Origin: an uncultured virus (IMG/VR IMGVR_UViG_3300021964_000044) | Taxonomy: Duplodnaviria; Heunggongvirae; Uroviricota; Caudoviricetes | Length of the DNA stretch: 64,000 nt | Virus record (IMG/VR): IMGVR_UViG_3300021964_000044 | Reading direction: 5' to 3' (one strand) | Part shown: positions 8,460 through 62,886 of the stretch, one piece after another | Layout of the letters: every line of letters starts with the position of its first letter | How positions within the stretch are numbered: position 1 is the first letter of the stretch | Notes under the pieces: model-generated | What the model saw: the letters and a program-made list of their open reading frames with translations, nothing else | Told to the model about the DNA's origin: nothing | Databases searched by the model: none | Position numbers and translations under genes: made by a program

Positions 8460-9119
8460 CTACAGCGCTTCCCAGAAATAAGGGTCTGTTACCCAATTTT
8501 CAATATTTCCTGAGCCTGGCGGAGTTTTGCTTACTACCATCAAGTCATAGGAAACTGAGTATCTGGGCTCCTCTCCGTAATAAGGAGTAACGGAGTGAGC
8601 AAACGCCCCTGGGAATAAGATAAGGCGATTCTTAACTGGACTTAACAGCACTTCTTTGTAGTTGATATCAGTATCTTCGAACACAATAGGCAGATAATCC
8701 ATGCAGTTATCGGATTCAAACTTTAAGCAACCGCTATTATTTAATGGCTCTGTTATATAAAAAACTGCACTGATAATAGCGTTCTTGTGTGCATGAGTAG
8801 GGATGTATCCTTCGTCTTCGCATATTGCTGGCCATGACTTTTCTGCGTAAATATTTACTTTATCCAGTGCTACGCCTATTTCCGAGAGGTACTCATTGCA
8901 GGCAATTCCAATTTGAGTATTTAACCATTTAAATTCTGGTTTTTTGTGTAGCAAAAATTCATCGCAAACATCCCCTGTAATGTTCGCCTGATGATCGCCT
9001 AATTCTTTAGATTTTATGTGAAAATTTTCAACAAATCTGAGCATTTCGCGCTCAACTTGAGCGGGAGGATCTAAATCCTCCATAAAAACTGGTGTGGCAA
9101 AAGCAGAAAAACAGGGCAT
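8460..9119 (-). CDS. 2OG-Fe(II) oxygenase (TIGR02466-like)
   Basis: HAHKNAIISAVFYI, LILFPGAFAHSV, RYSVSYD. Confidence 0.85.
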   Translation of the reverse strand: MPCFSAFATPVFMEDLDPPAQVEREMLRFVENFHIKSKELGDHQANITGDVCDEFLLHKKPEFKWLNTQIGIACNEYLSEIGVALDKVNIYAEKSWPAICEDEGYIPTHAHKNAIISAVFYITEPLNNSGCLKFESDNCMDYLPIVFEDTDINYKEVLLSPVKNRLILFPGAFAHSVTPYYGEEPRYSVSYDLMVVSKTPPGSGNIENWVTDPYFWEAL

Positions 9120-9135
9120 TTTGTAAGTGTTTACA

Positions 9136-9220
9136 TAGGAGCAGAGGGACTTGAACCCTCACGACCACGATGGTCTCAGGATTTTAAGTCCTGTGTGTCT
9201 ACCAATTCCACCATGCTCCC
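9136..9220 (-). tRNA. trnL: tRNA-Leu(TAA)
   Basis: GGTGGAATTGGTAGAC D-arm, CAGGA-CTTAAAA-TCCTG anticodon arm, long variable arm, GGTTCAAGTCC. Confidence 0.95.
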
Positions 9221-33879: not shown

Positions 33880-34085
33880 TTCAGTTTACCTTTTTTGTCT
33901 CTGATTTCGTAAACTTGAAATTCCCCATCACCGACTTCCGTGTCGAAAGACGTGTACAGGTTGCAACGAGGGAGTCGTACTTTGCCAGTCTCAGCAGATT
34001 TGAGATGGCACGGGTCCAACACAGAAAGCGAGCCGGAATCACTGCACACTGAGCCGATTAGTTTTGGCTGAGGGGAGTAAATCAC
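33855..34085 (-). CDS. hypothetical protein
   Basis: IG.V..DSG.L...DPC...GDGEF.VY motif of a recurring phage family. Confidence 0.6.
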   Translation of the reverse strand: MIYSPQPKLIGSVCSDSGSLSVLDPCHLKSAETGKVRLPRCNLYTSFDTEVGDGEFQVYEIRDKKGKLKCIVINME

Positions 34086-34279
34086 CGTGCATGCAAATTA
34101 ACATTGTTAGGTCTATTATACTACTGGGGCCGGAGAAGAACAGCGGCAGGCCCTGGGGAGGTGTGGTTTTTGCTGTTTCCCACACCTGGAAACTGAACAA
34201 CCTTGCCAGCATCGCTATTGGTGAGGTTGCACCCCATTTTCTTTAGATTTATTTAATGTTAAGTGTTACATCATAAACG

Positions 34280-34307
34280 GTAGTAAATACTACTAAATTC
34301 GTAGGAT
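34280..34307 (+). promoter_or_regulatory. NtcA-type box with downstream -10 element
   Basis: GTA-GTAAATAC-TAC at 34280-34293; TAGGAT at 34302-34307. Confidence 0.55.
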
Positions 34308-34331
34308 TGTTGGTGTAAATGGGTAACCATT

Positions 34332-34493
34332 ATGACTCAACTCGTCTATCGCGGCAACTCTTACTTCAAAGAAGAACAGTCAGAAATCGATCGTCAAGAT
34401 TGGAATCACCGCCATCGCCCCTCTCTTTGGCTTACTTATCGCTGTAAAAAGTACCGACCTTTTCAAGTGGGCGGCCAGGTGAAGGGCGTTTGA
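34332..34493 (+). CDS. DUF4278-like microprotein (53 aa)
   Basis: Read manually: MTQLVYRGNSY...WLTYRCKKYRP; two L.YRG..Y-type repeats. Confidence 0.75.
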   Translation: MTQLVYRGNSYFKEEQSEIDRQDWNHRHRPSLWLTYRCKKYRPFQVGGQVKGV

Positions 34494-35025
34494 AACTGAA
34501 AGACAGTACGATCCGCGTCCTGTCGCCGTAATTCCATAGTTCGTGTTCTTTTCTCTCATCAAAGACGAAAGAATCTCCTTCCTCCCAGGTGTAAAACTCG
34601 TCTTCAATGCGCATGCCGCAATGACGGAGTCCACCTGGGAATCTTGTGTCGGCTTTTGCGCCTTTTTTTGGGACAATTAATCCGAGGTGCCCGCTGTAAT
34701 TCTCCGTATTCGCGCTGGAGTGCGCCTGAATGTGAGTACCGACTGCCATTGATGAGAAGTAAGCCGATGATAGATCAGGAACCTGCTCCAGAAATTTTGT
34801 TGTTTTTGGGCATTTATCGCAGTTTGGCTGCCATTTAACACCTGCGATGAACAGTCGGAACACATCCCACTCGCCTTTATAGCTGCCTTTACTTGCAGCA
34901 GGAGTGAAGTAAGCAATGTCGTTTACGGTCTCGTTGTACAGGATAGTGATGACCTCTTCTCGAATAGCACGATAGTTTTCCTCCAAGATCTCTAGGAAAG
35001 GGAAAATATCGCGCTGCTCGTTCAT
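34432..35025 (-). CDS. aspartyl/asparaginyl beta-hydroxylase family 2OG oxygenase
   Basis: LEENY..IREE, CPKT...L, FS.M..GTHI.AH, HLGLIVP, W.EG...VFD...HE.WN.GD..RIVL. Confidence 0.88.
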   Translation of the reverse strand: MNEQRDIFPFLEILEENYRAIREEVITILYNETVNDIAYFTPAASKGSYKGEWDVFRLFIAGVKWQPNCDKCPKTTKFLEQVPDLSSAYFSSMAVGTHIQAHSSANTENYSGHLGLIVPKKGAKADTRFPGGLRHCGMRIEDEFYTWEEGDSFVFDERKEHELWNYGDRTRIVLSFSFKRPSPGRPLEKVGTFYSDK

Positions 35026-35081
35026 TTCGCTTATGAGAGTGATGTCATTCTAGACTCAGAGTTACGTTATATCTACGCCCG

Positions 35082-35315
35082 ATGCAGCGCTTACTCAACA
35101 TTCTCACCCTCATCAACACCGCTTGCGTAGGCATTGTTGTTGCAGGATCTGTATATATGTATCAAAATAAGGACGCAATCCGCGAATCTGTCCAAACGGT
35201 GATAGTAGAAGAGCTGAAAGAATCTGTAGGGGATTTGGTCAAAGAATCTCTTCCGGTTCCAGGGGTTCCTTCAAGCACTTCATTACCGAAAGGAATTCCT
35301 GCTCTACCTCTATGA
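35082..35315 (+). CDS. hypothetical single-TM protein
   Basis: N-terminal TM, Pro-rich tail; similar architecture to 3921-4232. Confidence 0.65.
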   Translation: MQRLLNILTLINTACVGIVVAGSVYMYQNKDAIRESVQTVIVEELKESVGDLVKESLPVPGVPSSTSLPKGIPALPL

Positions 35316-35968
35316 AAAAACTTTTACTCTCAGCATTAGCAGCCTCTGCGTTTTGTTTGCCAGTCTTCGCGCAAGAAAGAGTAAAAACCTGGCGCAGCTA
35401 CGATTCGATGGGCTGCATGATGTTGCGAGAGTGCACCGAATATACGACCGAAGTGCTGTCATGGCGTGACCTTGGGGGCAATTATGAGTTATGGAAAGGT
35501 GAACTCGATGTCATTTTGTCGTCCCTTAAGAGCCTTGGAGTAGGTGTTTTCGTTGCTGATGAGCGTTATTTCCTCCGCGACGTACGTGGTCTTTACGATG
35601 TAAAGGGTAATAACTTCTTTTTAAACCGTTCTTATCTGTATCAACCGACGAAAATGATGCAGGTGATCCGGCATGAAGGCTGGCACGTTGCACAGGATTG
35701 CATGGCAGGAACGCTTGACAACACCTTCACTGCCCTTATTCATGCTGAAGAGACAGTGCCTGATTGGATCCGTAGAGGGGCGGAGCGTACGTACCCGACC
35801 ACAATGGTCCCATTCGAAGCCGAGGCAATGTGGTCAATGTACTCAAGCACCCGTACTAAGGAAGCCTTAGCTGTTTGTGCAAGTCAAAAGAAAATGTGGG
35901 AAGTGTTTGAACCCACTCCCATGACAGGAGAATGGCTGATGGAGAAAGGGTTTATGCCTAAGCCCTGA
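35312..35968 (+). CDS. secreted HExxH zinc metallopeptidase-like cyanophage protein
   Basis: Signal peptide, MGCMMLREC, RHEGWHVAQDCMAG, E.EA. Confidence 0.75.
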   Translation: MKKLLLSALAASAFCLPVFAQERVKTWRSYDSMGCMMLRECTEYTTEVLSWRDLGGNYELWKGELDVILSSLKSLGVGVFVADERYFLRDVRGLYDVKGNNFFLNRSYLYQPTKMMQVIRHEGWHVAQDCMAGTLDNTFTALIHAEETVPDWIRRGAERTYPTTMVPFEAEAMWSMYSSTRTKEALAVCASQKKMWEVFEPTPMTGEWLMEKGFMPKP

Positions 35969-36244: not shown

Positions 36245-37324
36245 ATGGTCTCTTCCGTTCAGCCTCGTATTGAGGCGTCCGGCTGGGAGCAGTTCTGTGA
36301 ATGGGTGACTTCAACTAACAACCGGCTTTATGTCGGCTGGTTTGGCGTACTCATGATCCCGACGCTGCTTGCCGCCGCTATTTGCTTTACAGTGGCTTTT
36401 ATTGCCGCGCCTCCCGTCGACATTGACGGGATCCGTGAACCTGTTGCTGGAGCCCTGCTCTATGGAAACAACATCATTTCAGGAGCAGTTGTACCTAGCT
36501 CCAACGCAATCGGACTCCATCTCTACCCAATTTGGGAAGCTGCAAGCCTTGATGAATGGCTGTACAACGGCGGACCCTACCAGCTCGTTGTATTCCACTT
36601 CCTTATTGGTATCTTTGCTTACCTGGGACGTGAATGGGAACTTAGCTATCGATTAGGCATGCGCCCCTGGATCTGCGTTGCTTACAGCGCACCTGTGGCT
36701 GCTGCTTCTGCAGTGTTCCTGGTCTACCCCTTCGGTCAGGGTTCTTTCTCTGACGGCATGCCCCTGGGCATCTCTGGCACCTTCAACTTCATGCTGGTGT
36801 TCCAGGCCGAGCACAACATCCTGATGCACCCATTCCACATGCTGGGCGTGGCAGGTGTTTTCGGCGGCAGCTTGTTCTCCGCCATGCACGGTTCCCTGGT
36901 GACCTCCTCCCTGGTGCGTGAAACCACCGAGAGCGAGTCCCAGAACTACGGCTACAAGTTCGGCCAAGAGGAAGAGACCTACAACATCGTGGCTGCCCAC
37001 GGTTACTTCGGTCGCCTGATCTTCCAATATGCAAGTTTTAACAATTCTCGTAGCCTTCACTTTTTTCTGGCTGCTTGGCCTGTTGCTGGCATCTGGTTCA
37101 CTGCTCTTGGCGTGTCTACTATGGCCTTTAACCTTAATGGTTTCAATTTCAATCAGAGTGTTGTTGATTCTCAAAGCCGCGTCATCAACACTTGGGGTGA
37201 CATCCTCAATCGAGCCAATCTCGGAATGGAAGTCATGCATGAACGAAATGCTCACAACTTCCCCTTGGATCTTGCCGCCGCTGAATCCACGCAAGTGGCT
37301 CTAACTGCTCCAAGTATTGGCTAA
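36245..37324 (+). CDS. psbA: photosystem II D1 protein
   Basis: Unmistakable D1 sequence [14 protein letters not shown]...[13 protein letters not shown]; no intron. Confidence 0.99.
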
Positions 37325-47752: not shown

Positions 47753-48244
47753 TCAGAAAGGGATTCTTTGGTCAATACGTGAACTTTGACCAAGGGAATT
47801 GAAGGCTTGTTCCAGCCTCTCAGCTCTTTCCTCTTTGACAACGTGAGTCCTAGGAGGCGTGCCTGTCTGCCTGGCAGCAGCTTCCACGAATGCTTGCTCG
47901 AAGTCTCGCATCGGATCAATGTGCGCAATCTGTTTAAGGTGATTGACCATTGCCTTCGAGGCCCCAACTTGAGCAGAGATGTTTCCCGCTTCTTTAGCAT
48001 CCATACGATCCTGCTGGAGACAAGCAAGAACTTGAGCAAACATGAACGCACGATCCTGTGGAGCAACAGACTCAACGAGAAGCTGCCGTCCTTCACGTAC
48101 GTAGCTCCTGGCTTGTTGAGGCGACACTCCATATTTCTGAGCCAGAGTCTTGACAACGCTTCGCCCTGGCCACCCCTCCGATAGAAGATTGGCTGCTTCT
48201 TCTTGTCGTTCGAGAAGTTGTTCATTGGTTGAGCGGATAGTCAT
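47753..48244 (-). CDS. HTH-containing phage protein
   Basis: LL.EG......V..LAQKYGVS.QQARSYV; ATG 48244. Confidence 0.65.
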   Translation of the reverse strand: MTIRSTNEQLLERQEEAANLLSEGWPGRSVVKTLAQKYGVSPQQARSYVREGRQLLVESVAPQDRAFMFAQVLACLQQDRMDAKEAGNISAQVGASKAMVNHLKQIAHIDPMRDFEQAFVEAAARQTGTPPRTHVVKEERAERLEQAFNSLGQSSRIDQRIPF

Positions 48245-48474
48245 AGTTTTAAGGGCAGAGGTTGTAGGTCTTGAACTTCCCAATCAGTTTTACCAACTTG
48301 TTTGAGATAGCCTTTGTGAATTGAAATGCGCTTGGGGTCAGCTGAATTGCGAACGAGAGCGGTCAGCTTTGCTGTGGCTTCTGGCCAAGAGAAGGCACTG
48401 TCCACAAGGTTGTCGTCGTAGTGAAGTTGCCAGACGATGTGACGCCAGCTGGTGATCTCTCGGATTGGTTTCAT
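48241..48474 (-). CDS. hypothetical protein
   Basis: 77-aa ORF coupled on both sides. Confidence 0.55.
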   Translation of the reverse strand: MKPIREITSWRHIVWQLHYDDNLVDSAFSWPEATAKLTALVRNSADPKRISIHKGYLKQVGKTDWEVQDLQPLPLKL

Positions 48475-48944
48475 TTAGCAGGGCGGCCTTCGATGTAGGC
48501 CTTGATGGTTGGTGTTGCAGAGCCGTCGAATTGCTCTGCCTTTTGATCCACCTTGAGGTGCTCCAGCTTGATCTTTAGATCGTTGCTGTACTCCCAGCTA
48601 GTCCGCATCCGCAGCTTGATGACATAAGAGCCATCAGTCGTAGCCATGCTGTCCAGTTCATGCACCTGGAGGTGTCGTGTAAGACGAGTCTTGATCGGAT
48701 CCATCTGTTCAGACAGCGCTGCGATCTTCAACTGAAGAGTGCGGTAAGCCTCGATGTCTGCTTGGATTGGATCGACGGCGACTGGGCTTACTTCCTTCTC
48801 GGCTGTTGCTGCTGCTGCTTTAGCAGCGGCTGCCTTCTCCGCATTGCTGGGGCGGCCACGGCGACGCTTTGTCACTGTGGTTTGGATAGCTGTAGGAGGG
48901 AGGTTGTTCTTAGCTGTTCTAAGAGCAGTGGATTGAATGGTCAT
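48471..48944 (-). CDS. AT-hook plus coiled-coil protein
   Basis: KRRRGRPS AT-hook; heptad segment; ATG 48944 chosen. Confidence 0.6.
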   Translation of the reverse strand: MTIQSTALRTAKNNLPPTAIQTTVTKRRRGRPSNAEKAAAAKAAAATAEKEVSPVAVDPIQADIEAYRTLQLKIAALSEQMDPIKTRLTRHLQVHELDSMATTDGSYVIKLRMRTSWEYSNDLKIKLEHLKVDQKAEQFDGSATPTIKAYIEGRPAK

Positions 48945-48991
48945 GGTGATGAAGGTTGAGAGAGTGGAGGGATACCTATATATGTGGTGGG

Positions 48992-49035
48992 TATATATAG
49001 GCTTGCGTAGTGGTGGAGTCTTCTCTTGAGTTGAT
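48992..49035. repeat. 44-bp intergenic repeat, copy 1
   Basis: 36/44 identical to 49876-49919 by manual alignment. Confidence 0.75.
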
Positions 49036-49229
49036 TCTCTTTGAGAAGCTGGTTGCAAGACTAGGAAGTCTGGATAGTTTGATTAGGAAGTGTTCATAGG
49101 TTGTCACTTGTTTGGATTGAAAGGGTTTAGTTCTGTGGCGTCAGCATTCCTGTTGATGCTGGGCTGCTTTGCTGTTGCTGCTGGCAATGTGTTGACTGCT
49201 CAGACAGCATGCAAGGCACCTGATACCTA

Positions 49230-49424
49230 TCAGGAAATGTGAGACACTTCTTCTTGCAAAAGGTTCTCAATAGCCGGGAGGAGGGTGTTCTCGATCACTT
49301 CCAGCTGTGCATCAGTTAGGTCTTTCGTCTCGTTGTGGTTCTGAAGGAGACGCTTGGTGCGCTTCTCGAAGAAGTACAGAAGCGTCATCATGTCCATCGT
49401 GTGGATGTTGTAAGAGCTGATCAT
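49230..49424 (-). CDS. hypothetical protein
   Basis: 64-aa ORF, C/T/A-rich leader. Confidence 0.55.
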   Translation of the reverse strand: MISSYNIHTMDMMTLLYFFEKRTKRLLQNHNETKDLTDAQLEVIENTLLPAIENLLQEEVSHIS

Positions 49425-49444
49425 GAGAGGAAAGGGTGAGTGGA

Positions 49445-49810
49445 TTAGATGAGAGCTAAGAGTCTGAGCCAGCTGTCCGGGTGATCGTGTTCTACCTCGT
49501 CAAAGCATGGGGTGTAGCAAGGTTCGTTATCGAACAGCCACGCTTCACCTTCACCTTGGGTAGGAACTTCATACCAGCCTTCGAGTGCTGCTCGCTCAGG
49601 CTCTGAATAGTTGCCTCCCGTTGGCACCCAGTAGAGCCTCAGGAAGCCGTTGTCATCCTTGTAGACATCATTAGCCTTCTGGGTAACGCGAGGCATTACA
49701 GAGGGGTCGTAGGTCACAGGGACTTCGATTTGCTGGTCGGCCTCTTCCTGGCTGTTGAGGGGTATATAGGATATTTCTTCGGCAAGGAGTCGTTGTTCTG
49801 GAGTGAGCAT
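49445..49810 (-). CDS. hypothetical early protein
   Basis: TP..DEVEHDHPDSWL.LL.LI C-terminal motif of cyanophage early genes. Confidence 0.65.
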   Translation of the reverse strand: MLTPEQRLLAEEISYIPLNSQEEADQQIEVPVTYDPSVMPRVTQKANDVYKDDNGFLRLYWVPTGGNYSEPERAALEGWYEVPTQGEGEAWLFDNEPCYTPCFDEVEHDHPDSWLRLLALI

Positions 49811-49875
49811 GGTGAGAGTCTGTGAGTGGAGTGATGGAGTTGGTTCCTCTGTTGAGGTTGCATAGATTGTCTGTC

Positions 49876-49919
49876 TATATATGGGCTTGCGTGGTGGCGG
49901 TCACTTCTCCTGAGTGGAT
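49876..49919. repeat. 44-bp intergenic repeat, copy 2
   Basis: See copy 1. Confidence 0.75.
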
Positions 49920-49932
49920 CTTTAGATTGTCT

Positions 49933-50154
49933 TTATGATTCCCAGGTGTACTTCATGTTCCCGATCGTATTCCCATTGCTGTCCTTGATTACTGTTGTTA
50001 AGTCATTGATCGATCGATACTCTCCCTGCGCTGTCTCCATCTGATCCTGGATAACAGCCTTCAAATAACTGAGGACGTTATCAATCTCCTGGAACACTTC
50101 GTAGTCTGAGTCACCGAAGGATGCGTTCTCTGTGTCGAATAAAATGCTGATCAT
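49933..50154 (-). CDS. hypothetical early protein
   Basis: I.F.TENASF...I.DSNGNTIG motif of a recurring phage family. Confidence 0.65.
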   Translation of the reverse strand: MISILFDTENASFGDSDYEVFQEIDNVLSYLKAVIQDQMETAQGEYRSINDLTTVIKDSNGNTIGNMKYTWES

Positions 50155-50193
50155 GATAAAGAAAGTGACGAGTGAGTGAAACAGCCGGAAGAA

Positions 50194-50346
50194 TTAATGT
50201 GAAGTGAAAGTTAACTTCTTCTCGATCTTCTCTTTCTCTGCCCGCAACCTCAGAACGGTGCCGCTGTCCAACTTCTTATCAGGGTTGAGCAGCTCCTCGA
50301 TCAGTGCCAACTTCTCCTGGAGCTTCGAGTGCATTGATTTGGCCAT
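50194..50346 (-). CDS. hypothetical 50-aa protein
   Basis: ATG 50346 chosen. Confidence 0.5.
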   Translation of the reverse strand: MAKSMHSKLQEKLALIEELLNPDKKLDSGTVLRLRAEKEKIEKKLTFTSH

Positions 50347-50439
50347 GGGTTTCGAGCGGTGACGGTGGGACAGGGATAGACAGAACGTAGAAAGAGAAGG
50401 CGATGCTGGTGGTGGCCAGGAGTAAAGGAGCAACGCCCC

Positions 50440-50676
50440 TCAAGAGGCCAACCACATCCTTTCTTCGTCGCTTTCTGTAGCTTTGGGTCGGAAGCATGCT
50501 TGGAGATCCGTTGGTAGCTGTGATCGGGTGTTGCTGTAGCCATCCTTCTGTAACTCCAGAAGGTTGAGGTTGTTTCCCTCGCTATCAACTTGATTGGCGA
50601 GGGATCGGGCGAAAGCTCCTCTCTTCAAAGGCTTGTATGTCCTCTTCTTAGATGGATCTTTCTTGCGGCGGGCCAT
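50440..50676 (-). CDS. hypothetical basic protein
   Basis: ATG 50676 chosen (MARRKK...). Confidence 0.55.
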   Translation of the reverse strand: MARRKKDPSKKRTYKPLKRGAFARSLANQVDSEGNNLNLLELQKDGYSNTRSQLPTDLQACFRPKATESDEERMWLAS

Positions 50677-50745
50677 GTGTTGCGGTGTGGTCGCGTTGAT
50701 GGTGGCCCAGGCTGTCCAGACGTGCAACGGCCAGGGTTGGGAGCC

Positions 50746-50907
50746 TTAACCGTTTGTCGCACTTAGCCTGATCTGCTCCAACTGGAAGTCAGGCAACGTC
50801 TCAGCCAGGTGGTTGAGGCAGTCATCCCTATCCACACACTCGGTGATGGTGGTGAATAGGAACTTGTCTGGGTTGTCTTTGCGGGACAGGATGCAATCGA
50901 ATGTCAT
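50746..50907 (-). CDS. hypothetical 53-aa protein
   Basis: Read manually: MTFDCILSRKDNPDKFLFTTITEC...; ATGA coupling. Confidence 0.55.
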   Translation of the reverse strand: MTFDCILSRKDNPDKFLFTTITECVDRDDCLNHLAETLPDFQLEQIRLSATNG

Positions 50908-51161
50908 TGGTCTAAGGGTTGGGAGGATGAAGGGGATCGTTGAAACGGGAAGGTAGGGACTACGCGGAACTGGTGAACGTAAGCATCAATCGCTGCTCTC
51001 TTGTAGTCCTTGAGTGTTAGGAATGGGCCGATGCGTTTGTCTGTGTAGTTGACAAAGCGTTCGTACTTTCGTCTTGCGTCGTTGAAGATGCTGCAGGGGC
51101 TCCCACCCGTGGCTCTGAAGAGCTCGTGTGCATCGATGACTGACATCTTTGGAACTTTCAT
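50904..51161 (-). CDS. hypothetical protein
   Basis: 85-aa ORF. Confidence 0.55.
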   Translation of the reverse strand: MKVPKMSVIDAHELFRATGGSPCSIFNDARRKYERFVNYTDKRIGPFLTLKDYKRAAIDAYVHQFRVVPTFPFQRSPSSSQPLDQ

Positions 51162-51183
51162 GGGTTGGTCAGGGTGTGTGTGG

Positions 51184-51279
51184 TTAGCCGCCTTCAGCGA
51201 ATGTGATCAGGATCAGAACAGACATCAGGATCCCTGGCAGTAGCAAAAGGATCAGAAGTCCGAGGTCATGGAGAGTCAT
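51184..51279 (-). CDS. 31-aa single-TM microprotein, Norf4-like
   Basis: Read manually: MTLHDLGLLILLLLPGILMSVLILITFAEGG*; ATGA-coupled to the upstream gene. Confidence 0.65.
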   Translation of the reverse strand: MTLHDLGLLILLLLPGILMSVLILITFAEGG

Positions 51280-52055
51280 CGACCAGTGAGCTGTGGTGTG
51301 GAGCTGCGAGTCACCTGACGGTTGACTGAGGTGGAGCGGCCAGCGGCTTGACCAGCACGGGTGCCATTGCCTCCGAAGGTTTGACCGGAGCCAGAGCGAA
51401 GGCGTGGGTAGCGCTGCTTCACCAGGGCGTCGACTGCCTGTTGTTCGATGGTGTCCCGCTTCACCAGGGCCAGCCCACCTGTCACCCCTTGGGCTTGAGG
51501 TTGCTCTTTACGGCTTGCCATCTTCTGCTCCTGCAGCTTGTCTCGGATCGCGTTGGCGAATCCCTTGCGGAAGTTGAGACGGAAGGAGCGGGAGCTGTGA
51601 CCCTCAGCAACTGACTTAGCTTTGGCCTCGTCAGCCAGACGCTCCATCACTTCCTTTAGATAGGTGAAGTACAGCTCGATCTGAATGCGGTTGCCCTTGG
51701 TGGCCTGGATCTCGATGACGCTGGAGTTGTATCGATAGCCATCCATGCCCAGCTTGAAGCCGTCCTCCCGGCGGATACCCCGCTGGACTGTGCGTCCGTT
51801 GAAGTGGCGGGCTACGGCATTGAGCAGGCTCCAGTCAGCATGATCGACACGGTTGAAAGGAGTGCCCATCACCCAGAAGGTGGCCTCGTCACGCTCCGGA
51901 TCGAAGTCAGGGTTGATGTCCTCTGGAGCCAGTCCGTGCTCACGGCAGAGACGCTCAACAAAGGCGGCGGCGTTGGCAGCCTCCCCGGCGTTGTCAGACT
52001 GCTGCATGCGGAGCAGCTTGGCGATCTTGGCCTTGATGCTTGCGGTGTCGGTCAT
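51276..52055 (-). CDS. DUF2786 domain protein
   Basis: KIAKLLR...S.N.GEAA.A......L...HGL; SFR..F..GF; G..AG. Confidence 0.8.
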   Translation of the reverse strand: MTDTASIKAKIAKLLRMQQSDNAGEAANAAAFVERLCREHGLAPEDINPDFDPERDEATFWVMGTPFNRVDHADWSLLNAVARHFNGRTVQRGIRREDGFKLGMDGYRYNSSVIEIQATKGNRIQIELYFTYLKEVMERLADEAKAKSVAEGHSSRSFRLNFRKGFANAIRDKLQEQKMASRKEQPQAQGVTGGLALVKRDTIEQQAVDALVKQRYPRLRSGSGQTFGGNGTRAGQAAGRSTSVNRQVTRSSTPQLTGR

Positions 52056-52089
52056 GAGAGTGAGAGCGAGTGGAGGTGGTGGGAGAGAG

Positions 52090-52332
52090 TCAGCACTGAT
52101 GCCAGTCGTAGGGTGCGTCGATGTCATCAACACACCAGGCCCAGGTCTCTAGGCATTCCTTGTTCCTGTCGAACAGCCGCATCTCGTCGCAGCTGCTGGC
52201 CTCAACCTCGCGGTCAAGGTCGATGCACTTCTTGATGTAGGCCTGGGCGTCAGCCACCTGGGCGAAGTGCTCAGTGTGGACTGGCTGGTAGTGGTAGAAG
52301 CTGTGCTGGTTGTAGAGAGTGACGGTGTACAT
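52090..52332 (-). CDS. hypothetical early protein
   Basis: 80-aa ORF with host-like codons. Confidence 0.6.
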   Translation of the reverse strand: MYTVTLYNQHSFYHYQPVHTEHFAQVADAQAYIKKCIDLDREVEASSCDEMRLFDRNKECLETWAWCVDDIDAPYDWHQC

Positions 52333-52374
52333 GGCGGAGTCAGACGGGTGAGTGTGTGGTGGAGGGGAGGCCCC

Positions 52375-52587
52375 TCACTTGGTGCGCTGGAGGTTGTGCA
52401 CGTTGGCACCGCCCATAAAGCAGCCATCAGGGCCAGCGAAGTCCCATTGGATGGTGGCCAGCTCACCCGTCAGCTTGGTGATGACCCCTCGAGCTTGGGG
52501 AGTCCAGCCGGTGTGCGCACCGATAAGGCGGCAGAACTTGGAGCTGTAACGGACGCGGTCGCCTGCTTTGAAAGATGTCTGAGCCAT
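52375..52587 (-). CDS. small SH3-like early protein
   Basis: FKAGDRVRY...RGVI......ATIQWD...NL. Confidence 0.65.
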   Translation of the reverse strand: MAQTSFKAGDRVRYSSKFCRLIGAHTGWTPQARGVITKLTGELATIQWDFAGPDGCFMGGANVHNLQRTK

Positions 52588-53176
52588 GGTGCTGATCCTG
52601 CTAGGTGGATTGTTCTTCGGGTTCGCTTCCGATCCCGTTGGAACAACAATACACGATCGGCGAGCTTGTTTCGGGCTTTCCTGCCATTCTCGGCTGGATC
52701 GTTACACTCTGTTGTATTAAGTGCAGCGCTCTGTTCCCCATACAAGGCCTTGCACAGGCCCATCAGGCTGCCCTAGTGTCACCCCTGCATGCCTGAGCAT
52801 CGGACCCCGCCCCTGGCCCCCTGACCCCCTCTCAAAGGCCAAATCAATTTCCACAGGTCACTTACGCGAGACCAGAAGGGCCCCAATTTTGACGGGGAAC
52901 CTGGCCGCCCGGCCTTCCTTTCCCCAGAAAAAGCCCCCATTAAGGGGAAAAAAGGGCACAAAACGGGCAAAATGTCAATATTTCGTTACATTTCGGTGAC
53001 AATTGACAAAATTACCCCGGTGTGATCCACTCCGGGACCTCCCTTCACCCCCTGGGCACCCCTTCCCCTGTCCAGAACGTGTCCAAACCCCTGGCCAACC
53101 CCCGAGATCGGGCATCCTGACTGGGTTCCTGGCCTTGCGTACCTGCTTTTGAGGCAGATACGCGGCAGATGGACAC

Positions 53177-53198
53177 AAAAAAAGGGGCTCGAGGCCCC
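53177..53198 (-). terminator. intrinsic terminator
   Basis: GGGGC-CTCGA-GCCCC followed by T7. Confidence 0.75.
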
Positions 53199-53229
53199 CT
53201 GAGACTAAGTTTGGACGGGTGAGACACCC

Positions 53230-53433
53230 CTAGAGGCGCTCGGTGAGCTCGAATTGATCTTTCCAAAGTGGCCCATGGTCTCCGAACGGTTGAGAATCAA
53301 AGACCCGGAGATCAAACCCACTATTTGATGCAAACTCGGCGAGAATCACGCTTAAGTTGTTGAGATCCTCCCGGCCTCCGGTAGTTTGAATCCTAATCTT
53401 TCGCGCTTTCAGGTTGCGGCGGGGGTCTGGCAT
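53230..53433 (-). CDS. hypothetical protein
   Basis: ATG 53433 chosen; lies between two terminators. Confidence 0.45.
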   Translation of the reverse strand: MPDPRRNLKARKIRIQTTGGREDLNNLSVILAEFASNSGFDLRVFDSQPFGDHGPLWKDQFELTERL

Positions 53434-53455
53434 GGTCTCAGCAGATAAAAAGAGC

Positions 53456-53478
53456 AAAAAAACGGGTGATCTCACCCC
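53456..53478 (-). terminator. intrinsic terminator
   Basis: GGGTGA-GA-TCACCC, G, then T7 right after the 53479 stop. Confidence 0.65.
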
Positions 53479-53718
53479 CTAGGGGAAAACGAGATCAGCT
53501 ATGGCTTGAACAGTGGCGGCGCTTTCCTCAGCCTCGGCGATCTGATCCTCTAGGTCAGCGATGGCTGCCCGGAGCCTGTAGGTTTGCCAGCCGGTGGCCA
53601 GGTCCTCAGCCTCTTTCAGCCTGTCCAGCATGTCGCGGGCGTCTTCTAGGGTCTCGCCCTCCCACGTTTCGTAGGTTTGGTCAAATTCATCGCAGTCTGT
53701 CAGGGTGAAGCGTGCCAT
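53479..53718 (-). CDS. acidic early protein
   Basis: 79 aa, strongly Asp/Glu-rich. Confidence 0.65.
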   Translation of the reverse strand: MARFTLTDCDEFDQTYETWEGETLEDARDMLDRLKEAEDLATGWQTYRLRAAIADLEDQIAEAEESAATVQAIADLVFP

Positions 53719-53765
53719 GGTGCTAGGTGTGGTGGTGGTTTGCAGTGGTGGGAGCCCCGAAGGGC

Positions 53766-54605
53766 TCAGGCGATACAGAAGGCGCGGCGTTGTTCTTCAG
53801 TCTGGCCAGGGGTGCGCTTGATACGAAGGAGAACCACGTGGGTGCGCCCTGCAGTATCACCGGGTCGCCAGTCGGTAACGTCGCCGTCGAGTGTAGGGAA
53901 GGTTTGGCCGTCGATTGTCACCGTTTCAGGCAGGGCCGCGCTACGTGGCAGGGTGATGGCGGCGGCGTAGTTCAGCCCCAGCTCGGAGGCCTTAGCTAGC
54001 GTGTCGAATTTGGAGCCGTGCGACAGGGTGAGATGGTATCCCTGACGGGCTGCCGCTTTCCAGTCCCGGTCAATCCGTTTGGTGTAGTCGTATGGCTTGA
54101 GAGACGGAACCACAGCCCGTAGAAGGCTGAACAAAGACCACGTGCCCACGGGCAGGGTGAAGCCAAAGGCCTGGCCAACGTACCCAGCAAGATCGCTGTC
54201 TACTTCTACGGTTTCACTCTCCCATGCGAAGTCTGACGTGCCGTTAAGGCGGAGACCCAGGGTGGGGGAGTCCTCATGCTTACCGGCGAAGCGCAGGACC
54301 TCGAGCAAGAGAAGCCGCTTGAATGCGCGGGGGTGATCGTAGAAAGCCAACGACCGCAGCTTGCGGCGCTGGAGCTTGCCCTTGAGATAGGCAGGGTTAC
54401 CGGCCCGGTTCAGGCAGACCGCCTGGCAGGAGCCAGCGGCAACACAGGACCCCAGCCACATAGGGGTGAGATGTAGCACAGCCGTAGGGGCGATGCTTTC
54501 AGACTTCAGAACCTTAGGGTTGGTCAGCGTTAGAACGTTTGAACTGGTGAACCCGTACTGGGCCCGGAGCTCCCGGAGGTCGGCGGGAAGGGTGGCGCGT
54601 GGCAT
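53766..54605 (-). CDS. GP88-like protein with a Cx5Cx3C cluster
   Basis: NPKV.KS, C.AAGSC...CLN.AG, RLNGTSD, YDYTK, YHLT.S, DGD..D.R..D. Confidence 0.75.
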   Translation of the reverse strand: MPRATLPADLRELRAQYGFTSSNVLTLTNPKVLKSESIAPTAVLHLTPMWLGSCVAAGSCQAVCLNRAGNPAYLKGKLQRRKLRSLAFYDHPRAFKRLLLLEVLRFAGKHEDSPTLGLRLNGTSDFAWESETVEVDSDLAGYVGQAFGFTLPVGTWSLFSLLRAVVPSLKPYDYTKRIDRDWKAAARQGYHLTLSHGSKFDTLAKASELGLNYAAAITLPRSAALPETVTIDGQTFPTLDGDVTDWRPGDTAGRTHVVLLRIKRTPGQTEEQRRAFCIA

Positions 54606-54640
54606 GGTGAGAACGTGCTAGGTGTTCAGATGAGAGGGGA

Positions 54641-54829
54641 TCAGATCCGGCCCATGGCCAGATCATCCATGAATTCTTCCAACTTATCAGCCGGGAGAAA
54701 GGAGGCCATCCGGTCCAAGAGCCCCTGAGGGTCGTACCCGTGCTCAAAGCATAGGCCGCAGAAGTCCTCCCTGATGTCAGCGGATGGTAGCCCCTGGTCA
54801 GCATAGGGCTGGTCTGGTGTGAATGCCAT
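54641..54829 (-). CDS. first gene of the early transcript, acidic hypothetical protein
   Basis: ATG 54829 chosen (MAFTPDQ...), downstream of the predicted promoter. Confidence 0.6.
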   Translation of the reverse strand: MAFTPDQPYADQGLPSADIREDFCGLCFEHGYDPQGLLDRMASFLPADKLEEFMDDLAMGRI

Positions 54830-54895
54830 TGATTGAACCGGCTTGCTAGGTGCCGGGTGAAACGACGAAAGCGGCGCAGTGCTGCCGCTGAATCC

Positions 54896-54925
54896 ATCAT
54901 GCACACAACATCGGGCAAACGTCAA
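54896..54925 (-). promoter_or_regulatory. sigma70-like early promoter
   Basis: TTGACG-N18-CATGAT on the minus strand. Confidence 0.55.
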
Positions 54926-55185
54926 GCGATTCGCCCATATAGATAGATATACCGTGCTTTGTAACTGATTGTTAAGCGCTTAATGAACGGATTGTTACAA
55001 CGTTACGGATTGTTACATGAAGCTTCTTTTTTTCCTCTAACGTAAACTTTTGTGACAGGGGCGCCAGATGTCTCTCCAAATTATTACCCCAATTTGACCC
55101 CAATATAGGGCTTTTAGGGGTCGGCGGCAAGAGGGATGTTCACAGGAATTAAACTTGGTTATATCGTGATAAAGATGGAATAGTT

Positions 55186-56553
55186 ATGCCTGTATCTCCG
55201 GCAGACTTTGAGTTTTACTCCCGCGTTACTGGGCAACCAATTCCGCGAGATCCGGCTGCTCGTATGCAGATGGCGCCACAGGTGTATGCGATGCGACGTG
55301 GCCCGCTAAGTGGAATTAAAGATCGCCTCGGCGGTGCTGTTCGTGGCGCAATCCTGGGTGGAGCTGCTGTTGGTGCTGCTTCTCTTTTATTGCGTGATTT
55401 GAATGACGGTCAGAGTGGCGAAGTCAATACACCTGGCGAAAACTACGGTCAAAAGAGCGTTCCTACGCAAACTAACGTTGCTAAAGATATTGCCGAGTCT
55501 GTAAAAACAGAAGAAATTGCTGCTGAGGGTGTTTCTGTTACCCAGGCGAACGAATTAGCTTCTCGTCAGTCAGTTACTCCTGATTATGACGATCCTTCAG
55601 GCATGGAGTTGGTCGGTGGCGCTGCTTCCCCAGCCGAAGTTGCTGCTTTTCGCGATTCTCTTTCTCACCAGACAGCAGCTGAGCCTGTTGTAATGGCTGA
55701 ACCTGCGCCTTCGACTGTTCGTGAGAAAACAAGTGATTTGATCGGTCGTGTTTTTGGCACAGCAGAGCAGGCACCTAGTCAATTAGCTCAATACGGTGCA
55801 TTGAATCCTCAAGAGCAAGAGATTCGTGATTTGATGACTGCTTATGAGTCAGCAGAAGGACAAGCACTTGCTGGACAGGACCAAAGCATCAGCCCTTTCC
55901 AAGTCGGTGGCGCAATGCCCTCTTTGATGGAGCAAAACAAGCCTGTGCGTGAACTTCAAAAGTCCATGCCTGGTGCATCTAAAGAAGAAATGATTAGTGC
56001 GATGAATGCGCCTGCTGGTCCTGGTGGTGTGCGCATGCAGCTGCCTAGCACAAGTGGTAATCCTGCTTCCGTGGAATTTTTTCCAGAGGCTCGTGGTGAA
56101 GGCGGGATCAGTGCTGCAAAAGTACAATTCCGCCCTGGTGGAGAGACTTACACATATGAAGCTTCTCCAGAAGGTGTTGCTCGCTTACAGGGTGTTCAAT
56201 CAGGTGCCGAGAAAGTTAAGTCCGGTAAGAGTTTTCTGCACGATGCTATCAGTAAGGGCCAGCTGGTGAATCCAGTTGATGCATTGCTGAAATCTGAATC
56301 TGCCCCTGAGTCTGCCCCTGAGTCTGCTCCTCAGTCTGCCCCTGTCCAAACAGCTGCTCCTGAAAAGGTAACTCTTGGAGATGTGGGTAAGCAGTTTACT
56401 CGTGCTGTTGGTTCTACTGTCCAGGGCCTTCTTGGCAAAGCGTCGGCTCGTCGTAAAGAGCAAGAGGTTGATGCCCAGATTCGTCAAGCTCACGGTAATG
56501 TCACCGACCCAGAGCAGATTAGCCAGCTCCGTGATTATTACATGAATAAGTGA
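55186..56553 (+). CDS. putative internal virion protein
   Basis: 455 aa, low complexity, one Gly/Ala hydrophobic stretch, ESAP repeats. Confidence 0.65.
   Translation: MPVSPADFEFYSRVTGQPIPRDPAARMQMAPQVYAMRRGPLSGIKDRLGGAVRGAILGGAAVGAASLLLRDLNDGQSGEVNTPGENYGQKSVPTQTNVAKDIAESVKTEEIAAEGVSVTQANELASRQSVTPDYDDPSGMELVGGAASPAEVAAFRDSLSHQTAAEPVVMAEPAPSTVREKTSDLIGRVFGTAEQAPSQLAQYGALNPQEQEIRDLMTAYESAEGQALAGQDQSISPFQVGGAMPSLMEQNKPVRELQKSMPGASKEEMISAMNAPAGPGGVRMQLPSTSGNPASVEFFPEARGEGGISAAKVQFRPGGETYTYEASPEGVARLQGVQSGAEKVKSGKSFLHDAISKGQLVNPVDALLKSESAPESAPESAPQSAPVQTAAPEKVTLGDVGKQFTRAVGSTVQGLLGKASARRKEQEVDAQIRQAHGNVTDPEQISQLRDYYMNK
56296..56343 (+). repeat. 12-nt coding tandem repeat x4 ([EQ]SAP)
   Basis: GAGTCTGCCCCT-like units. 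Confidence 0.85.
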
Positions 56554-61338: not shown

Positions 61339-61362
61339 TGATTGTTACGCTATGCTTTGAGC

Positions 61363-62886
61363 ATGGCAGGAACAAGTCTTCATAGCGTATATCGTCGATC
61401 TGCACGTGCAGCAGCACAACAAAGAATTGTCAAAAAGACAACTTCTGTAGATGTAGCACGCGCACGAACTGATTTTGCATATTTTTGTGATGTGGTTGGA
61501 GATAAACCTCCTGCTACGCACCATAAAGAATGGCATCAATACCTGTGCACAGGGGATGATTCAGAATGTCTTGTTGGTATCGGTGGACCCAATATTGATA
61601 TTCTTGCTCCACGAGGTAGTGCTAAATCAACTATTCTTGGTTTATACACGGCTTGGGCTGTTGGTGTTCACGCGGTACACAAGAAACCGCTGAAAGTTCT
61701 CTATATTTCATATACGGTTGACGTTGCTCGTCCGAAGAGCGCAGCGATTAAGCGCATTATTGAGGAGAGTAAAACGTATCGAGAGATCTTTCCAATGGTG
61801 AAGATTGCTAAGGGAATTAACTCTAACGAGTACTGGAGCATTGACTGGAAATTTGCAGGGATTAAATCGACTGGTGAAGAAGAATTCACTGTTTGTTGTG
61901 CTGGTCTCAAAGGTGCTGTGACCTCTAAACGTTCCCATCTCTGTATTATTGATGACGCCATCAAATCTGCGGACGACATTAAGAACAGGGATATCCGCCA
62001 GGCGATGGAGGACAACTGGAACTCAGTTATTGTTCCCACTATGTTTGAAGGTGGGCGTGCCATTTGCTTGGGAACCCGTTTCCGTCACGACGATATTCAC
62101 AACAGCACGTTCACTCCGGCCAACAGTTGGGTCCAGATCGTTCAGTCAGCGATCACAGTGGATGAGCATGGGGACGAGATTTCTTACTGGCCAGAAATGT
62201 GGTCTTTGGATTACTTGCGTGATCGGCGTCGTCAAGCCCCTGTCGCGTTTAGCTTCCAGTATCAGAACCAGATTGTTCAGACGAGTGAGTTGTCCCTATC
62301 ACCTGAGCTAATTGTCAAAGGAAATATTGCCACAGAATTCGACACCTTAGGGGTGGGAGTGGACCTTTCGGCTGGTGTTCGGGAAAAGAACGATTACACC
62401 GTTTTCGTGATGGGTGGTCGTATTGGCGGCAAGATTCATATTATCGATTGCAAGCGTCTCCGCATTATGGGCAATTTGGAAAAACTCGAGGCTCTGATGG
62501 AGATGATGGATGAATGGGGCGTTTGCTACAAAGATGGCGATAAGTATTTCCCTTCTGGTACAGGCATTGAGATTTGGTCAGAAGCCGTGGCGTATCAGGC
62601 GTCCTTGGAGGCAGACTTCAAACGTATTTGTCTTGGGGAGCACGGCCTCTATAACATGCATTGGCATCCCATCAAAGGATTTCGCGGGGACAAAGTTGCC
62701 CGGTTCAGGGGAATTATGGGTCTTTTTGAGCAGCATAAAATCACGTTTAATAAGTATCGAAAAATGAAAGAGCTTACAGATGAGATCGTGAACTTTGGTG
62801 TAAGCTCTCACGATGACTGTGTCGACGCTCTTGTCTGGCTCTGCAATGGTTTGATGACCCGAGGGAAACTAGAGTTAGAGTATTGA
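61363..62886 (+). CDS. terL: terminase large subunit
   Basis: APRGSAKST Walker A, CIIDD Walker B, GTRF..DD, GVDLS...NDYT nuclease, HDDCVDA. Confidence 0.93.
   Translation: MAGTSLHSVYRRSARAAAQQRIVKKTTSVDVARARTDFAYFCDVVGDKPPATHHKEWHQYLCTGDDSECLVGIGGPNIDILAPRGSAKSTILGLYTAWAVGVHAVHKKPLKVLYISYTVDVARPKSAAIKRIIEESKTYREIFPMVKIAKGINSNEYWSIDWKFAGIKSTGEEEFTVCCAGLKGAVTSKRSHLCIIDDAIKSADDIKNRDIRQAMEDNWNSVIVPTMFEGGRAICLGTRFRHDDIHNSTFTPANSWVQIVQSAITVDEHGDEISYWPEMWSLDYLRDRRRQAPVAFSFQYQNQIVQTSELSLSPELIVKGNIATEFDTLGVGVDLSAGVREKNDYTVFVMGGRIGGKIHIIDCKRLRIMGNLEKLEALMEMMDEWGVCYKDGDKYFPSGTGIEIWSEAVAYQASLEADFKRICLGEHGLYNMHWHPIKGFRGDKVARFRGIMGLFEQHKITFNKYRKMKELTDEIVNFGVSSHDDCVDALVWLCNGLMTRGKLELEY

Follow-up and report, generated by a model that had tools for sequence, protein, structure and literature searches.

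The nut boxB of phage lambda is a small hairpin on the early transcripts, located behind the early promoters, and its fixed loop is read by the small basic N protein. A lambda-type nut site comprises a five-base GNRA-like loop on a 5-bp stem with boxA a few bases upstream, and there is one such site per early operon. Phage N4 uses hairpin promoters with a 3-nt loop and a 5-7-bp stem, which require a giant virion RNA polymerase. The coat-protein operators of MS2 and PP7 are hairpins in the initiation region; it is the loop letters and the shape that are recognised, not the stem letters, and the outcome is translational repression. In the sections of PMC3014915 drawn on here, RegB and RegA of phage T4 target the places at which translation of numerous early mRNAs is initiated, and T4 gp43 has as its operator a hairpin adjoining the ribosome site. 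A further element of T4-type phages, the PeSL cassette, is described in the part of PMC2839356 used here as a strong sigma-70-like promoter combined with a terminator stem-loop.

The window, by which we mean the whole 64-kb stretch of DNA that was analysed, is an S-EIV1-like Synechococcus phage and carries psbA. Its early cluster, and those of about two dozen uncultured relatives, bear a 13-nt box with the consensus CC-ACYUAGNAM-GG and the core CACCTAGCA. The loop has 9 nt, rarely 8 nt (consensus ACYUAGNAM), and the bases that flank it covary as a stem of 2-5 bp. It is conserved and structured, is confined to one strand and accompanies the start codons of early genes. We tentatively regard it as a translational operator that would act at the level of the mRNA, where translation of the earliest genes is initiated, and would be read by a sequence-specific trans factor.

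As with lambda boxB, the box is a small fixed-loop hairpin on early transcripts just behind early promoters, but its loop has 8-9 nt, it has no boxA and there are many copies per operon, each tied to a start codon. The N4 promoters are likewise short covarying hairpins with fixed loop letters ahead of early genes; they differ from the box in loop size, and no RNA polymerase domain was found among the window ORFs, none of which exceeds 875 aa. With the MS2 and PP7 operators the box shares a hairpin at the initiation region in which loop rather than stem letters are fixed, whereas in MS2 and PP7 the start codon lies within the hairpin, the loop has 4-6 nt, one base is bulged out and a single gene is controlled.

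T4 RegB and RegA resemble the putative reader of the box in that a single phage-encoded factor ends expression of many early cistrons through their initiation regions; the RegB target in intergenic initiation regions, GGAG/U (PMC3014915, sections drawn on), also recalls the box, many copies of which close at the corresponding position with GGA and then U or G. RegA sites, however, are A+U-rich and unstructured, and RegB needs a short motif together with S1 (same sections of PMC3014915), whereas the box is a C-rich 13-mer with a covarying stem. The gp43 operator of T4 and RB69 is a small hairpin with a sequence-specific loop that adjoins and overlaps the ribosome's binding site and to which a phage protein binds, and its loop letters differ among related phages, as do the loop alleles here; it is a single autoregulatory site for one gene (PMC3014915, as above), whereas each box-bearing locus has 3-8 copies ahead of unrelated genes. 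Like the box, PeSL cassettes are short regulatory units repeated among small, non-essential early genes of a mosaic region, and they are units at which genes are gained and lost (PMC2839356, the part used here), as may also happen at the box. Unlike them, the box shows no sigma-70 or -35/-10 features and its neighbouring hairpins mostly lack U runs.

Box copies in the window

The core CACCTAGCA occurs four times in the 64 kb, always on the minus (gene) strand (4/4), where 0.38 matches are expected, and none of 100 dinucleotide shuffles of the window reached four. The four minus-strand positions listed in the earlier note (54844-54852, 54616-54624, 53721-53729 and 52599-52607) are all exact matches. 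The ATGs assigned to them there (54829, 54605, 53718 and 52587) lie 14, 10, 2 and 11 nt past the motif, respectively, and the ORFs that these open align at their N-termini with homologues of relatives. When one mismatch is tolerated, the rest of the window shows no enrichment of the 8-mer (39 found vs 44.5 expected). An exact reverse-complement copy of the loop is absent from the window, and a trans RNA bearing the antisense of the loop was rejected for this reason. The features of the early locus are collected in Table 1.

Table 1 Features of the early locus (window coordinates)
Feature	Position	Strand	Details
Sigma-70-like early promoter	54896..54925	-	TTGACG, 18-nt spacer, CATGAT
Stable hairpin near predicted 5′ end of gene 1 leader	54870..54889	-	folding
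Copy 1 of box	54838..54856	-	stem CCGGC/GCCGG, loop ACCTAGCAA; in the gene 1 leader (5′)
Early gene 1 (62 aa)	54641..54829	-	headed by copy 1
Copy 2 of box	54611..54627	-	stem GAAC/GTTC, loop ACCTAGCAC; junction of gene 1/gene 2
Early gene 2 (279 aa, Pfam GP88 family)	53766..54605	-	headed by copy 2
Copy 3 of box	53721..53729	-	bare motif without stem, 2 nt 5′ of gene 3 ATG
Early gene 3 (79 aa)	53479..53718	-	headed by copy 3
Intrinsic-terminator-like hairpin and T run after gene 3	53464..53477	-	
g4 (67 aa)	53230..53433	-	own box absent; between two terminators
Intrinsic-terminator-like hairpin and T run after g4	53182..53200	-	
Stable hairpin immediately 5′ of copy 4	52611..52645	-	folding
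Copy 4 of box	52595..52610	-	stem ATCC/GGAT, loop ACCTAGCA; second early operon's leader
Early gene 5 (70 aa)	52375..52587	-	headed by copy 4

Folding bore out the three different stems proposed for copies 1, 2 and 4 and gave none for copy 3. Copy 1 has a 9-nt loop (-8.5 kcal/mol), keeps its stem in the minimum-energy fold of the leader and scores 24.0 bits in the covariance model described below. The stem of copy 4 (8-nt loop, -3.0 kcal/mol, 17.6 bits) is also part of the minimum-energy fold; that of copy 2 (9-nt loop, -1.8 kcal/mol, 22.9 bits) is missing from the minimum-energy fold of the longer context. At the gene 1/gene 2 junction of relatives there is a hairpin with another stem and another loop. 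Copy 3 is a weak match to the model (13.9 bits) and the motif was not found at the orthologous junctions of L083-L085. The earlier statement that these leaders lack a Shine-Dalgarno sequence needs a small correction, since copy 4 has a 3′ arm that reads AGGA, 8 nt before the ATG. Copies 1 and 2 retain a stem with an arm that is not Shine-Dalgarno-like.

Copy 1 is 44 nt downstream of the sigma-70-like -10 hexamer and would thus lie within a host-made transcript. By eye, the promoter hexamers are conserved and their spacer is variable in L083-L085, and the stable hairpin at 54870-54889 has a counterpart in relatives. A promoter scan located hexamers at 54896-54925 and within the divergent region only, with none at the boxes. 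The two clear terminators of the window flank g4, not the boxes.

Distribution and stem pairing in relatives

A loose regular expression for the loop proved too noisy and a covariance model seeded with 29 box copies was used in its place. An anchor from the divergent promoter region recovered few relatives and some chance matches; 13 new contigs outside the seed were retrieved via g4. Enrichment of the motif in the leaders of related phages, which the earlier note had set as a check, was found: in these 13 contigs (116,583 bases, both strands) the model located 56 further copies, 56/56 on the gene strand. Among the 86 distinct copies thus collected across 24 genomes or contigs, which are not phylogenetically independent, C8, C10 and U12 are each present in 86/86, G14 in 85/86, A9 in 83/86 and A16 in 79/86, and the flanks of the box, including those upstream, hold nearly no information. 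The ORFs that follow are mostly unrelated to each other. In whole records the matches form a single promoter-proximal cluster of roughly 2-3 kb on a single strand (for example at 33905-35885 of a 72-kb contig), and later genes of the same early operon have CA-rich leaders instead of the box.

The suggestion that this is not a described element stands. Rfam release 15 gave no match for 52300-55200 at E up to 5, and at gathering scores the whole window yielded four tRNAs and nothing else; a description of the box was not found in the literature searched. When the covariance model was run on five picocyanobacterial genomes (about 13 Mb), nine matches were returned at E 1.5-4.9, the best with 18.2 bits at E 1.5. 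A host-type element was rejected on this basis.

Compensatory stem changes, the covariation in relatives that had likewise been named as a check, are present. In a flank-permutation test the summed stem length was 96 against 58.9 +/- 4.5, and 0/20,000 permutations were as high. We note that alignment A4 had been fitted to the covariance model. In the independent set the covariation score was 0.176 vs 0.070, with 0/500 shuffles as high, and at stem pair 2 four of the five cases that are not C-G are still standard pairs. An unbiased mutual-information scan (20 x 105 column pairs) placed stem pairs 2 and 3 in the top two ranks. The same scan revealed no partner for the loop, and a pseudoknot involving it was rejected on that basis. 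Mimicry of a tRNA anticodon arm was rejected by eye, because the stem register yields a 9-nt loop. At stem pair 3, C-A is not depleted (20 observed vs 17.1 expected) and other mismatches are (15 vs 36); such a pattern could equally arise if the complementary strand folds or if the copies fall into two sub-classes.

The stems are short, with at most 2 bp in 41/86 copies. About half of the copies have just the two invariant C-G pairs, for which the word hairpin overstates the structure, and since window copy 3 has no pair at all, a pre-formed hairpin is not universal. Most stems appear too weak on their own, as the energies of copies 2 and 4 illustrate, which fits a ligand-stabilised structure. 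As in an operator, sequence-specific single-stranded letters are carried on a helix that tolerates compensatory change. The putative protein-bound RNA operator put forward in the earlier note is thus partly supported, through its fixed loop on variable stems, the enrichment and the compensatory changes; it was overcalled as a hairpin for the copies with two C-G pairs.

Base-pair covariation is not expected of a duplex promoter, and this bears on an alternative that we consider improbable, in which the box would work at the DNA level. It would then be an unusual promoter or, with the upstream hairpins, a cassette-boundary signal with a putative RNA-polymerase specificity, and might also provide micro-homology for PeSL-like cassette swaps. 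The fixed distance to the start codon would suit such a role, as would the unrelated small genes behind the box with a GC hairpin ahead of each, and the triloop hairpin that relatives have some 20 nt upstream of their boxes (the window has no such hairpin). Metagenome contigs also break or join exactly at box joints: one skips 54607-54830 (gene 1 and leader 2), and loose contig ends fall at 53729, the first base of copy 3, and at 54638/54640, all of these resting on single low-depth contigs at an 80% likeness threshold among the DNA contigs of four runs, which cover the stretch in part. No RNA run was found to contain the phage. The box is however unlike a sigma-70 promoter, its TAGNAM hexamer having no final T, and in the leaders where it sits, a host-type promoter is already present 40-60 nt upstream of it. 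By eye, most of the GC hairpins upstream of boxes in relatives have no T/U run, and the genes therefore look polycistronic. No polymerase domain was found among the window ORFs, and a search for T7-type polymerase (PF00940) gave no match in five box-bearing records (0/5; a weak result, the records being incomplete and the search having no positive control).

Placement at start codons and proposed mode of action

In the independent set, an ORF of at least 35 aa follows 49/51 distinct copies. The first base of the 3′ arm lies exactly 10 nt from the start codon in 23 of these 49 and 9-12 nt from it in 35, such that the arm overlaps or abuts the ribosome-binding region. In relatives this arm is often GGA or GGAG, at Shine-Dalgarno spacing. 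Initiation led by Shine-Dalgarno pairing is largely missing in picocyanobacteria and their phages; here a Shine-Dalgarno-like 4-mer precedes 24 of 100 phage ORFs, and of the 19 ORFs in the early block just 2 have one.

The spacing of the arm, its frequent GGA or GGAG and the rarity of Shine-Dalgarno use would all be accommodated by a ribosome-site design that acts purely in cis, the box being sufficient by itself for initiation in hosts with little use of Shine-Dalgarno pairing. The weak hairpin might mask a weak GGA/GGAG site and so tune its yield, or offer a short helix where the Shine-Dalgarno duplex docks; the host ribosome or protein S1 would read the loop directly with no phage factor involved. 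Translation of the earliest genes precedes any phage protein, and with a stable hairpin always just upstream the box could insulate the start site. A cis-only design nevertheless leaves unexplained the eight near-invariant loop positions across diverged phages, and the covariance model finds no such element in the five host-type genomes. Window copies 1 and 2, moreover, keep a stem with no Shine-Dalgarno-like arm. Complementarity between the box and 16S rRNA, the latter taken from a Synechococcus genome reached through the phage psbA, is at the level of chance (best 7 nt; 840/2000 shuffled 13-mers reach at least 7 nt). We judge the cis-only design to be rather unlikely.

The 7-nt match, which extends to 9 nt for one loop variant, falls at 16S positions 766-775, which we take to be base-paired inside rRNA helices. 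Pairing with 16S rRNA as an initiation enhancer was rejected, given the chance-level match and the paired state of this site. As a separate observation, some leaders resemble the 16S 3′ tail by eye.

At the junctions the stop codon is succeeded by a GC hairpin that has no U run, then by a C-rich spacer, the box and the AUG, and the identical unit is found behind promoters and behind upstream genes. This arrangement could punctuate the transcript for processing or stability: a host or phage endoribonuclease would cut at or beside the box, the upstream cistron gaining a protective 3′ hairpin and the downstream one its own short leader. T4 RegB cuts GGAG/U in early initiation regions (PMC3014915, in the sections drawn on), and the GGA with U or G at the end of many boxes would be in keeping with such a cut. 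On the other hand, cutting inside the box would give leaders of merely about 10 nt, and the tight spacing to the AUG is needless for mere punctuation. We find this explanation very unlikely in its own right; it merges with the operator reading if the nuclease is phage-encoded and inactivating.

Among the processes named in the earlier note (translational control, processing and boxB-like antitermination), the first fits best, given the Shine-Dalgarno distance of the 3′ arm and the many unrelated cistrons that the box precedes. Antitermination fits worst, since a locus may hold up to eight copies and every one of them is closely tied to a start codon. A nut-like hairpin would load a phage protein on RNA polymerase for read-through of the terminators flanking g4 and of others further downstream. 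Each of the two early operons does have a box in its leader (copies 1 and 4), upstream of two terminator-like sites, and g4 has a basic N-terminus and a weak fold likeness to NusE/S10 (TM 0.60, E 0.08), a match which falls in the chance range. The 9-nt loop is not a GNRA-like pentaloop, and a conserved boxA-like partner is missing: the window has a single boxA-like string, ahead of g4, and relatives have not retained it. Antitermination appears to us highly improbable.

The data thus establish the element itself, its conservation and pairing, its set position ahead of start codons, its confinement to the early cluster and its co-occurrence with g4; action at the RNA level, binding by a factor and the direction of control are inferred. 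In the translational operator that we prefer, the portable 13-nt box would fold on the mRNA into a short hairpin with a sequence-fixed loop, and would mark the first few cistrons behind each host-type early promoter of the S-EIV1-like cyanophage clade, whatever product these encode. A trans factor would recognise the loop and clamp the weak stem over the ribosome-binding region, or cut there. The immediate-early proteins would in this way be controlled as one group and, most plausibly, shut off after they have acted. The reader is more likely to be phage-encoded than host-encoded, because the box is missing from the five host-type genomes searched and travels with g4. As a 13-nt tag on exactly the earliest, mostly uncharacterised host-takeover genes of cyanophages, the box offers a handle for spotting immediate-early genes in metagenomic cyanophages, and for pulling down its reading factor and examining post-transcriptional early shut-off outside the T4 model. 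If portable, it could become a small expression-control part for Synechococcus.

g4 as a candidate reader

The g4 protein has a basic N-terminus and a predicted beta-alpha-beta-beta fold, and its gene has its own, different leader. The box is present in 13/13 new g4-bearing contigs, g4 is present in 6/6 box-bearing loci that reach far enough, and it is missing in 5/5 box-less relatives, four of which are complete or at least 98% complete; this co-occurrence is confounded, as g4 and the boxes share a module and a lineage and are only 1-4 kb apart, and the 13 contigs were found via g4. The structure model is confident (pLDDT 81) and its fold matches are generic only, the best being a dodecin at a Foldseek E of 0.035, with VIA Z values of at most 6.4; the modelled fold thus offers no functional lead. 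A protein Atlas search with g4 gave no match and a word-based homologue search returned two proteins. No homologue of RegA or RegB was detected among the early ORFs with Pfam or PHROGs.

It is conceivable, if doubtful, that the box is the operator of a phage-encoded post-transcriptional regulator, with g4 as the candidate, which would bind or cut every immediate-early start site and so time the switch from early to middle expression. The g4 system would then be a cyanophage counterpart of T4 RegA/RegB that uses a hairpin operator, and the loop alleles (UAG vs UCG) would be expected to track the g4 subtypes. These subtypes differ in an N-terminal extension and an internal insertion, which are present or absent.

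A structured, sequence-specific leader element

The motif CACCTAGCA occurs four times in the window, on the minus strand only (0.38 copies expected; none of 100 shuffles gave four), and each copy precedes an early ATG, as the earlier note had claimed. The N-termini of the ORFs behind them agree with those of homologues in related contigs. Perfect inverted repeats of 4–5 bp, each of different sequence, flank three copies; the claimed constant loop on differing stems, with a fourth copy weak or stemless, therefore stands. By predicted stem energy only copy 1 is stable by itself, copies 2 and 4 being marginal. The −10 hexamer of a sigma-70-like promoter lies 44 nt upstream of copy 1; its hexamers are conserved in relatives, its spacer is not, which places copy 1 within a host-made leader.

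Coordinates of the leader element (box) and of other features in the window and related records
Feature	Position	Strand	Remarks
Box copy 1, gene 1	54838..54856	−	ATG 54829; motif to ATG 14 nt; stem −8.5 kcal/mol
Box copy 2, gene 2	54611..54627	−	ATG 54605; 10 nt; −1.8 kcal/mol
Box copy 3, gene 3	53721..53729	−	ATG 53718; 2 nt; stem absent
Box copy 4, gene 5	52595..52610	−	ATG 52587; 11 nt; −3.0 kcal/mol
g4	53230-53433	−	67 aa
boxA-like string	53436-53462		between first terminator and g4 start codon
Non-coding stretch	52588-53229		640 nt, between g4 and gene 5
GTAACAATCCGT-like words	54960-55020		upstream of early promoter
Divergent control region	~54,900-55,190		structural genes rightwards, long series of small genes leftwards
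G+C-rich block	48000-55000		leftward, promoter-proximal
Large terminase	61342-62886
psbA	36245-37324
tRNA cluster	8227-9220		four genes: Thr, Pro, Met, Leu
S-EIVl (L002) 17-nt strings	3754-3791, 3460-3497	−	between early genes
L214 second hairpin	4890-4915
L106 g4-type leader	~5800-5826

The exact 9-mer is absent from the three relatives whose gene 2 is closest (~90% protein identity). At the same two junctions these carry hairpins with stems GATC/GATC, AAACC/GGTTT and TGATC/GATCG and the loop ACTTCGCA or a near variant; the window's loop sits on still other stems in further relatives with a G+C-rich early block. A covariance model built from an alignment of 29 copies and run on 613 kb of phage DNA gave 37 matches with E no higher than 10; three were weak outsiders, and the rest were essentially these leaders. 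On 13 contigs outside the seed, retrieved via a different gene (g4), it gave 56 matches in 116,583 bases, all 56 on the gene strand, which bears out the proposed enrichment in leaders of related phages. In whole records the matches are confined to one cluster and one strand.

The 86 distinct copies give CC-ACYUAGNAM-GG as consensus. In it C8, C10 and U12 are invariant, G14 (85/86), A9 (83/86), A16 (79/86), G18 (78/86) and A13 (77/86) nearly so, and the flanking bases are almost without information content. When flanks were permuted, the observed summed stem length of 96 (permuted, 58.9 ± 4.5) was reached in none of 20,000 permutations. The stem also covaries in the independent set (score 0.176 vs 0.070, reached by none of 500 shuffles), where four of five deviations from C-G at stem pair 2 remain standard pairs; a blind mutual-information scan of some 2,000 column pairs ranked stem pairs 2 and 3 highest. 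Two contiguous pairs were counted in 29 copies, three in 16, four in 19, five in 10 and fewer than two in 12, some zero counts being copies with an 8-nt loop shifted by one column in the alignment. The box is thus a structured, sequence-specific leader element, and that part of the earlier reading as a protein-bound RNA operator holds; the reader and the effect are still inferred.

Placement and possible function

Of 49 independent copies, 23 have the first base of the 3′ arm exactly 10 nt upstream of the start codon and 35 have it 9–12 nt upstream, which is Shine-Dalgarno territory. Among relatives this arm is frequently GGA or GGAG; in the window only copy 4 has such an arm (AGGA, at an SD-like position), so the claim that no leader has a Shine-Dalgarno sequence needs a small correction at copy 4. 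An SD-like 4-mer at −22 to −5 precedes only 24 of 100 greedy ORF calls; of the 19 in the early block only 2 have one, and many leaders there are CA-rich and terminate in ACC before the ATG. A ribosome-site design acting purely in cis would share this placement and is a possible but unlikely explanation. We tentatively favour, at rather less than an even chance, a shared translational operator on early mRNAs, because four features combine: a single-stranded loop of fixed letters, a helix tolerant of compensatory change and too weak to stand alone, fixed placement over the ribosome-binding region, and restriction to first cistrons behind early promoters. Genes further along the same operons have CA-rich leaders instead; those headed by the box are mostly unrelated small ORFs.

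Negative control is the simplest logic, since the box is specific to the phage and translation of the earliest genes must precede any phage protein. A factor made later would close or cut the start sites carrying the box. RegA and RegB play a comparable shut-off role on T4 early mRNAs, and the T4 gp43 hairpin operator resembles the box in architecture (PMC3014915).

A stable hairpin always lies directly upstream of the box, either the leader's 5′ hairpin or a GC hairpin past the preceding stop codon, mostly without a U run; that the box is RNA punctuation seems improbable. In contigs L203-L214 many boxes have a second small hairpin ~15–30 nt upstream, between GC hairpin and box, whose GAUUC-type loop is conserved and whose stems covary (e.g. 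GAGGGA/TCCCTC, CTGG/CCAG); it is absent from the window.

Metagenome contigs show genes gained and lost exactly at these joints, which lends some weight to reading the box as an unusual promoter or cassette boundary. One contig omits 54607-54830 (gene 1 and leader 2), one loose end begins at 53729, the first base of copy 3, and runs on into a different gene, and two loose ends at 54638-54640 substitute sequence after the gene 1 stop codon; all of these are single contigs of low depth. An RNA role better accommodates base-pair covariation, an arm resembling a Shine-Dalgarno sequence and host-type promoters upstream, and we consider an unusual promoter or boundary box rather unlikely. No RNA polymerase gene was found among the window's ORFs, nor in a search of relatives run without a positive control.

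The box matches no Rfam family and does not resemble a sigma-70 promoter. A host element was rejected (best match in five picocyanobacterial genomes 18.2 bits, E 1.5), as was pairing with rRNA: complementarity to a Synechococcus 16S rRNA reaches at most 7 nt (9 nt with one variant), 42% of shuffled boxes match equally well, and the matched site is, on inspection, base-paired within the rRNA. We regard the box as a newly described, sharply bounded cis element belonging to a general type that is already known; it marks the immediate-early genes of a cyanophage lineage that is widespread and little understood, and it lends itself to direct tests.

A candidate reader and other control sequences

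As a lead only, g4 is a candidate reader of the box. Its N-terminus is basic, and for its beta-alpha-beta-beta fold, predicted with confidence, structure matches gave no functional clue. Boxes are present in 13 of 13 newly found g4-bearing contigs (themselves retrieved through g4), g4 in 6 of 6 box-bearing loci extending far enough, and g4 is absent from 5 of 5 box-less relatives, among them S-EIVl and three records of 98% completeness or more, a co-occurrence confounded by linkage and resting on few independent events. Each of the two loop alleles, UAG and UCG, accompanies its own g4 subtype, the subtypes being distinguished by indels. The gene has no box of its own and is flanked by two predicted terminators; the string before it resembles boxA, the antitermination word in operons for ribosomal RNA, and is not conserved in relatives. 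Antitermination is a very improbable role for the box.

Homologues of g4 in L096, L205, L207-L209 and L212-L214 have another conserved leader of ~25 nt adjoining the start codon, with two CCTTAAC-like half-repeats; it also adjoins the start codons of a few other genes and occurs in L106. This distinct leader alongside the box indicates several leader classes in this phage group. In the cultured relative S-EIVl, where the box is absent, a hairpin comes after each of two copies of a 17-nt string; the two hairpins share their 7-nt loop and differ in their 7-bp stems, the same design principle in different letters. The stretch between g4 and gene 5, conserved in relatives, contains an imperfect hairpin of 10 bp, recurring GTAAC-type words and hexamers like those of promoters, and probably controls the second early operon. 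The repeated GTAACAATCCGT-like words, with related words in relatives, may be operators for a DNA-binding regulator.

Genome setting

The window is a cyanophage. Its large terminase shares 64% identity with that of Synechococcus phage S-EIVl (KJ410740), whose divergent layout it shares, and it encodes psbA, a family A DNA polymerase, a primase-helicase and thyX. A marine Synechococcus genome encodes a psbA protein 92% identical to the window's. G+C is 53–58% in the leftward block and 41–52% in the remainder; early modules of box-bearing relatives are also G+C-rich, whereas early regions of box-less relatives are A+T-rich. This contrast suggests a separate evolutionary origin of the early module. 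Near-identical pieces of the window were found in contigs from four studies, three labelled estuary and one marine.
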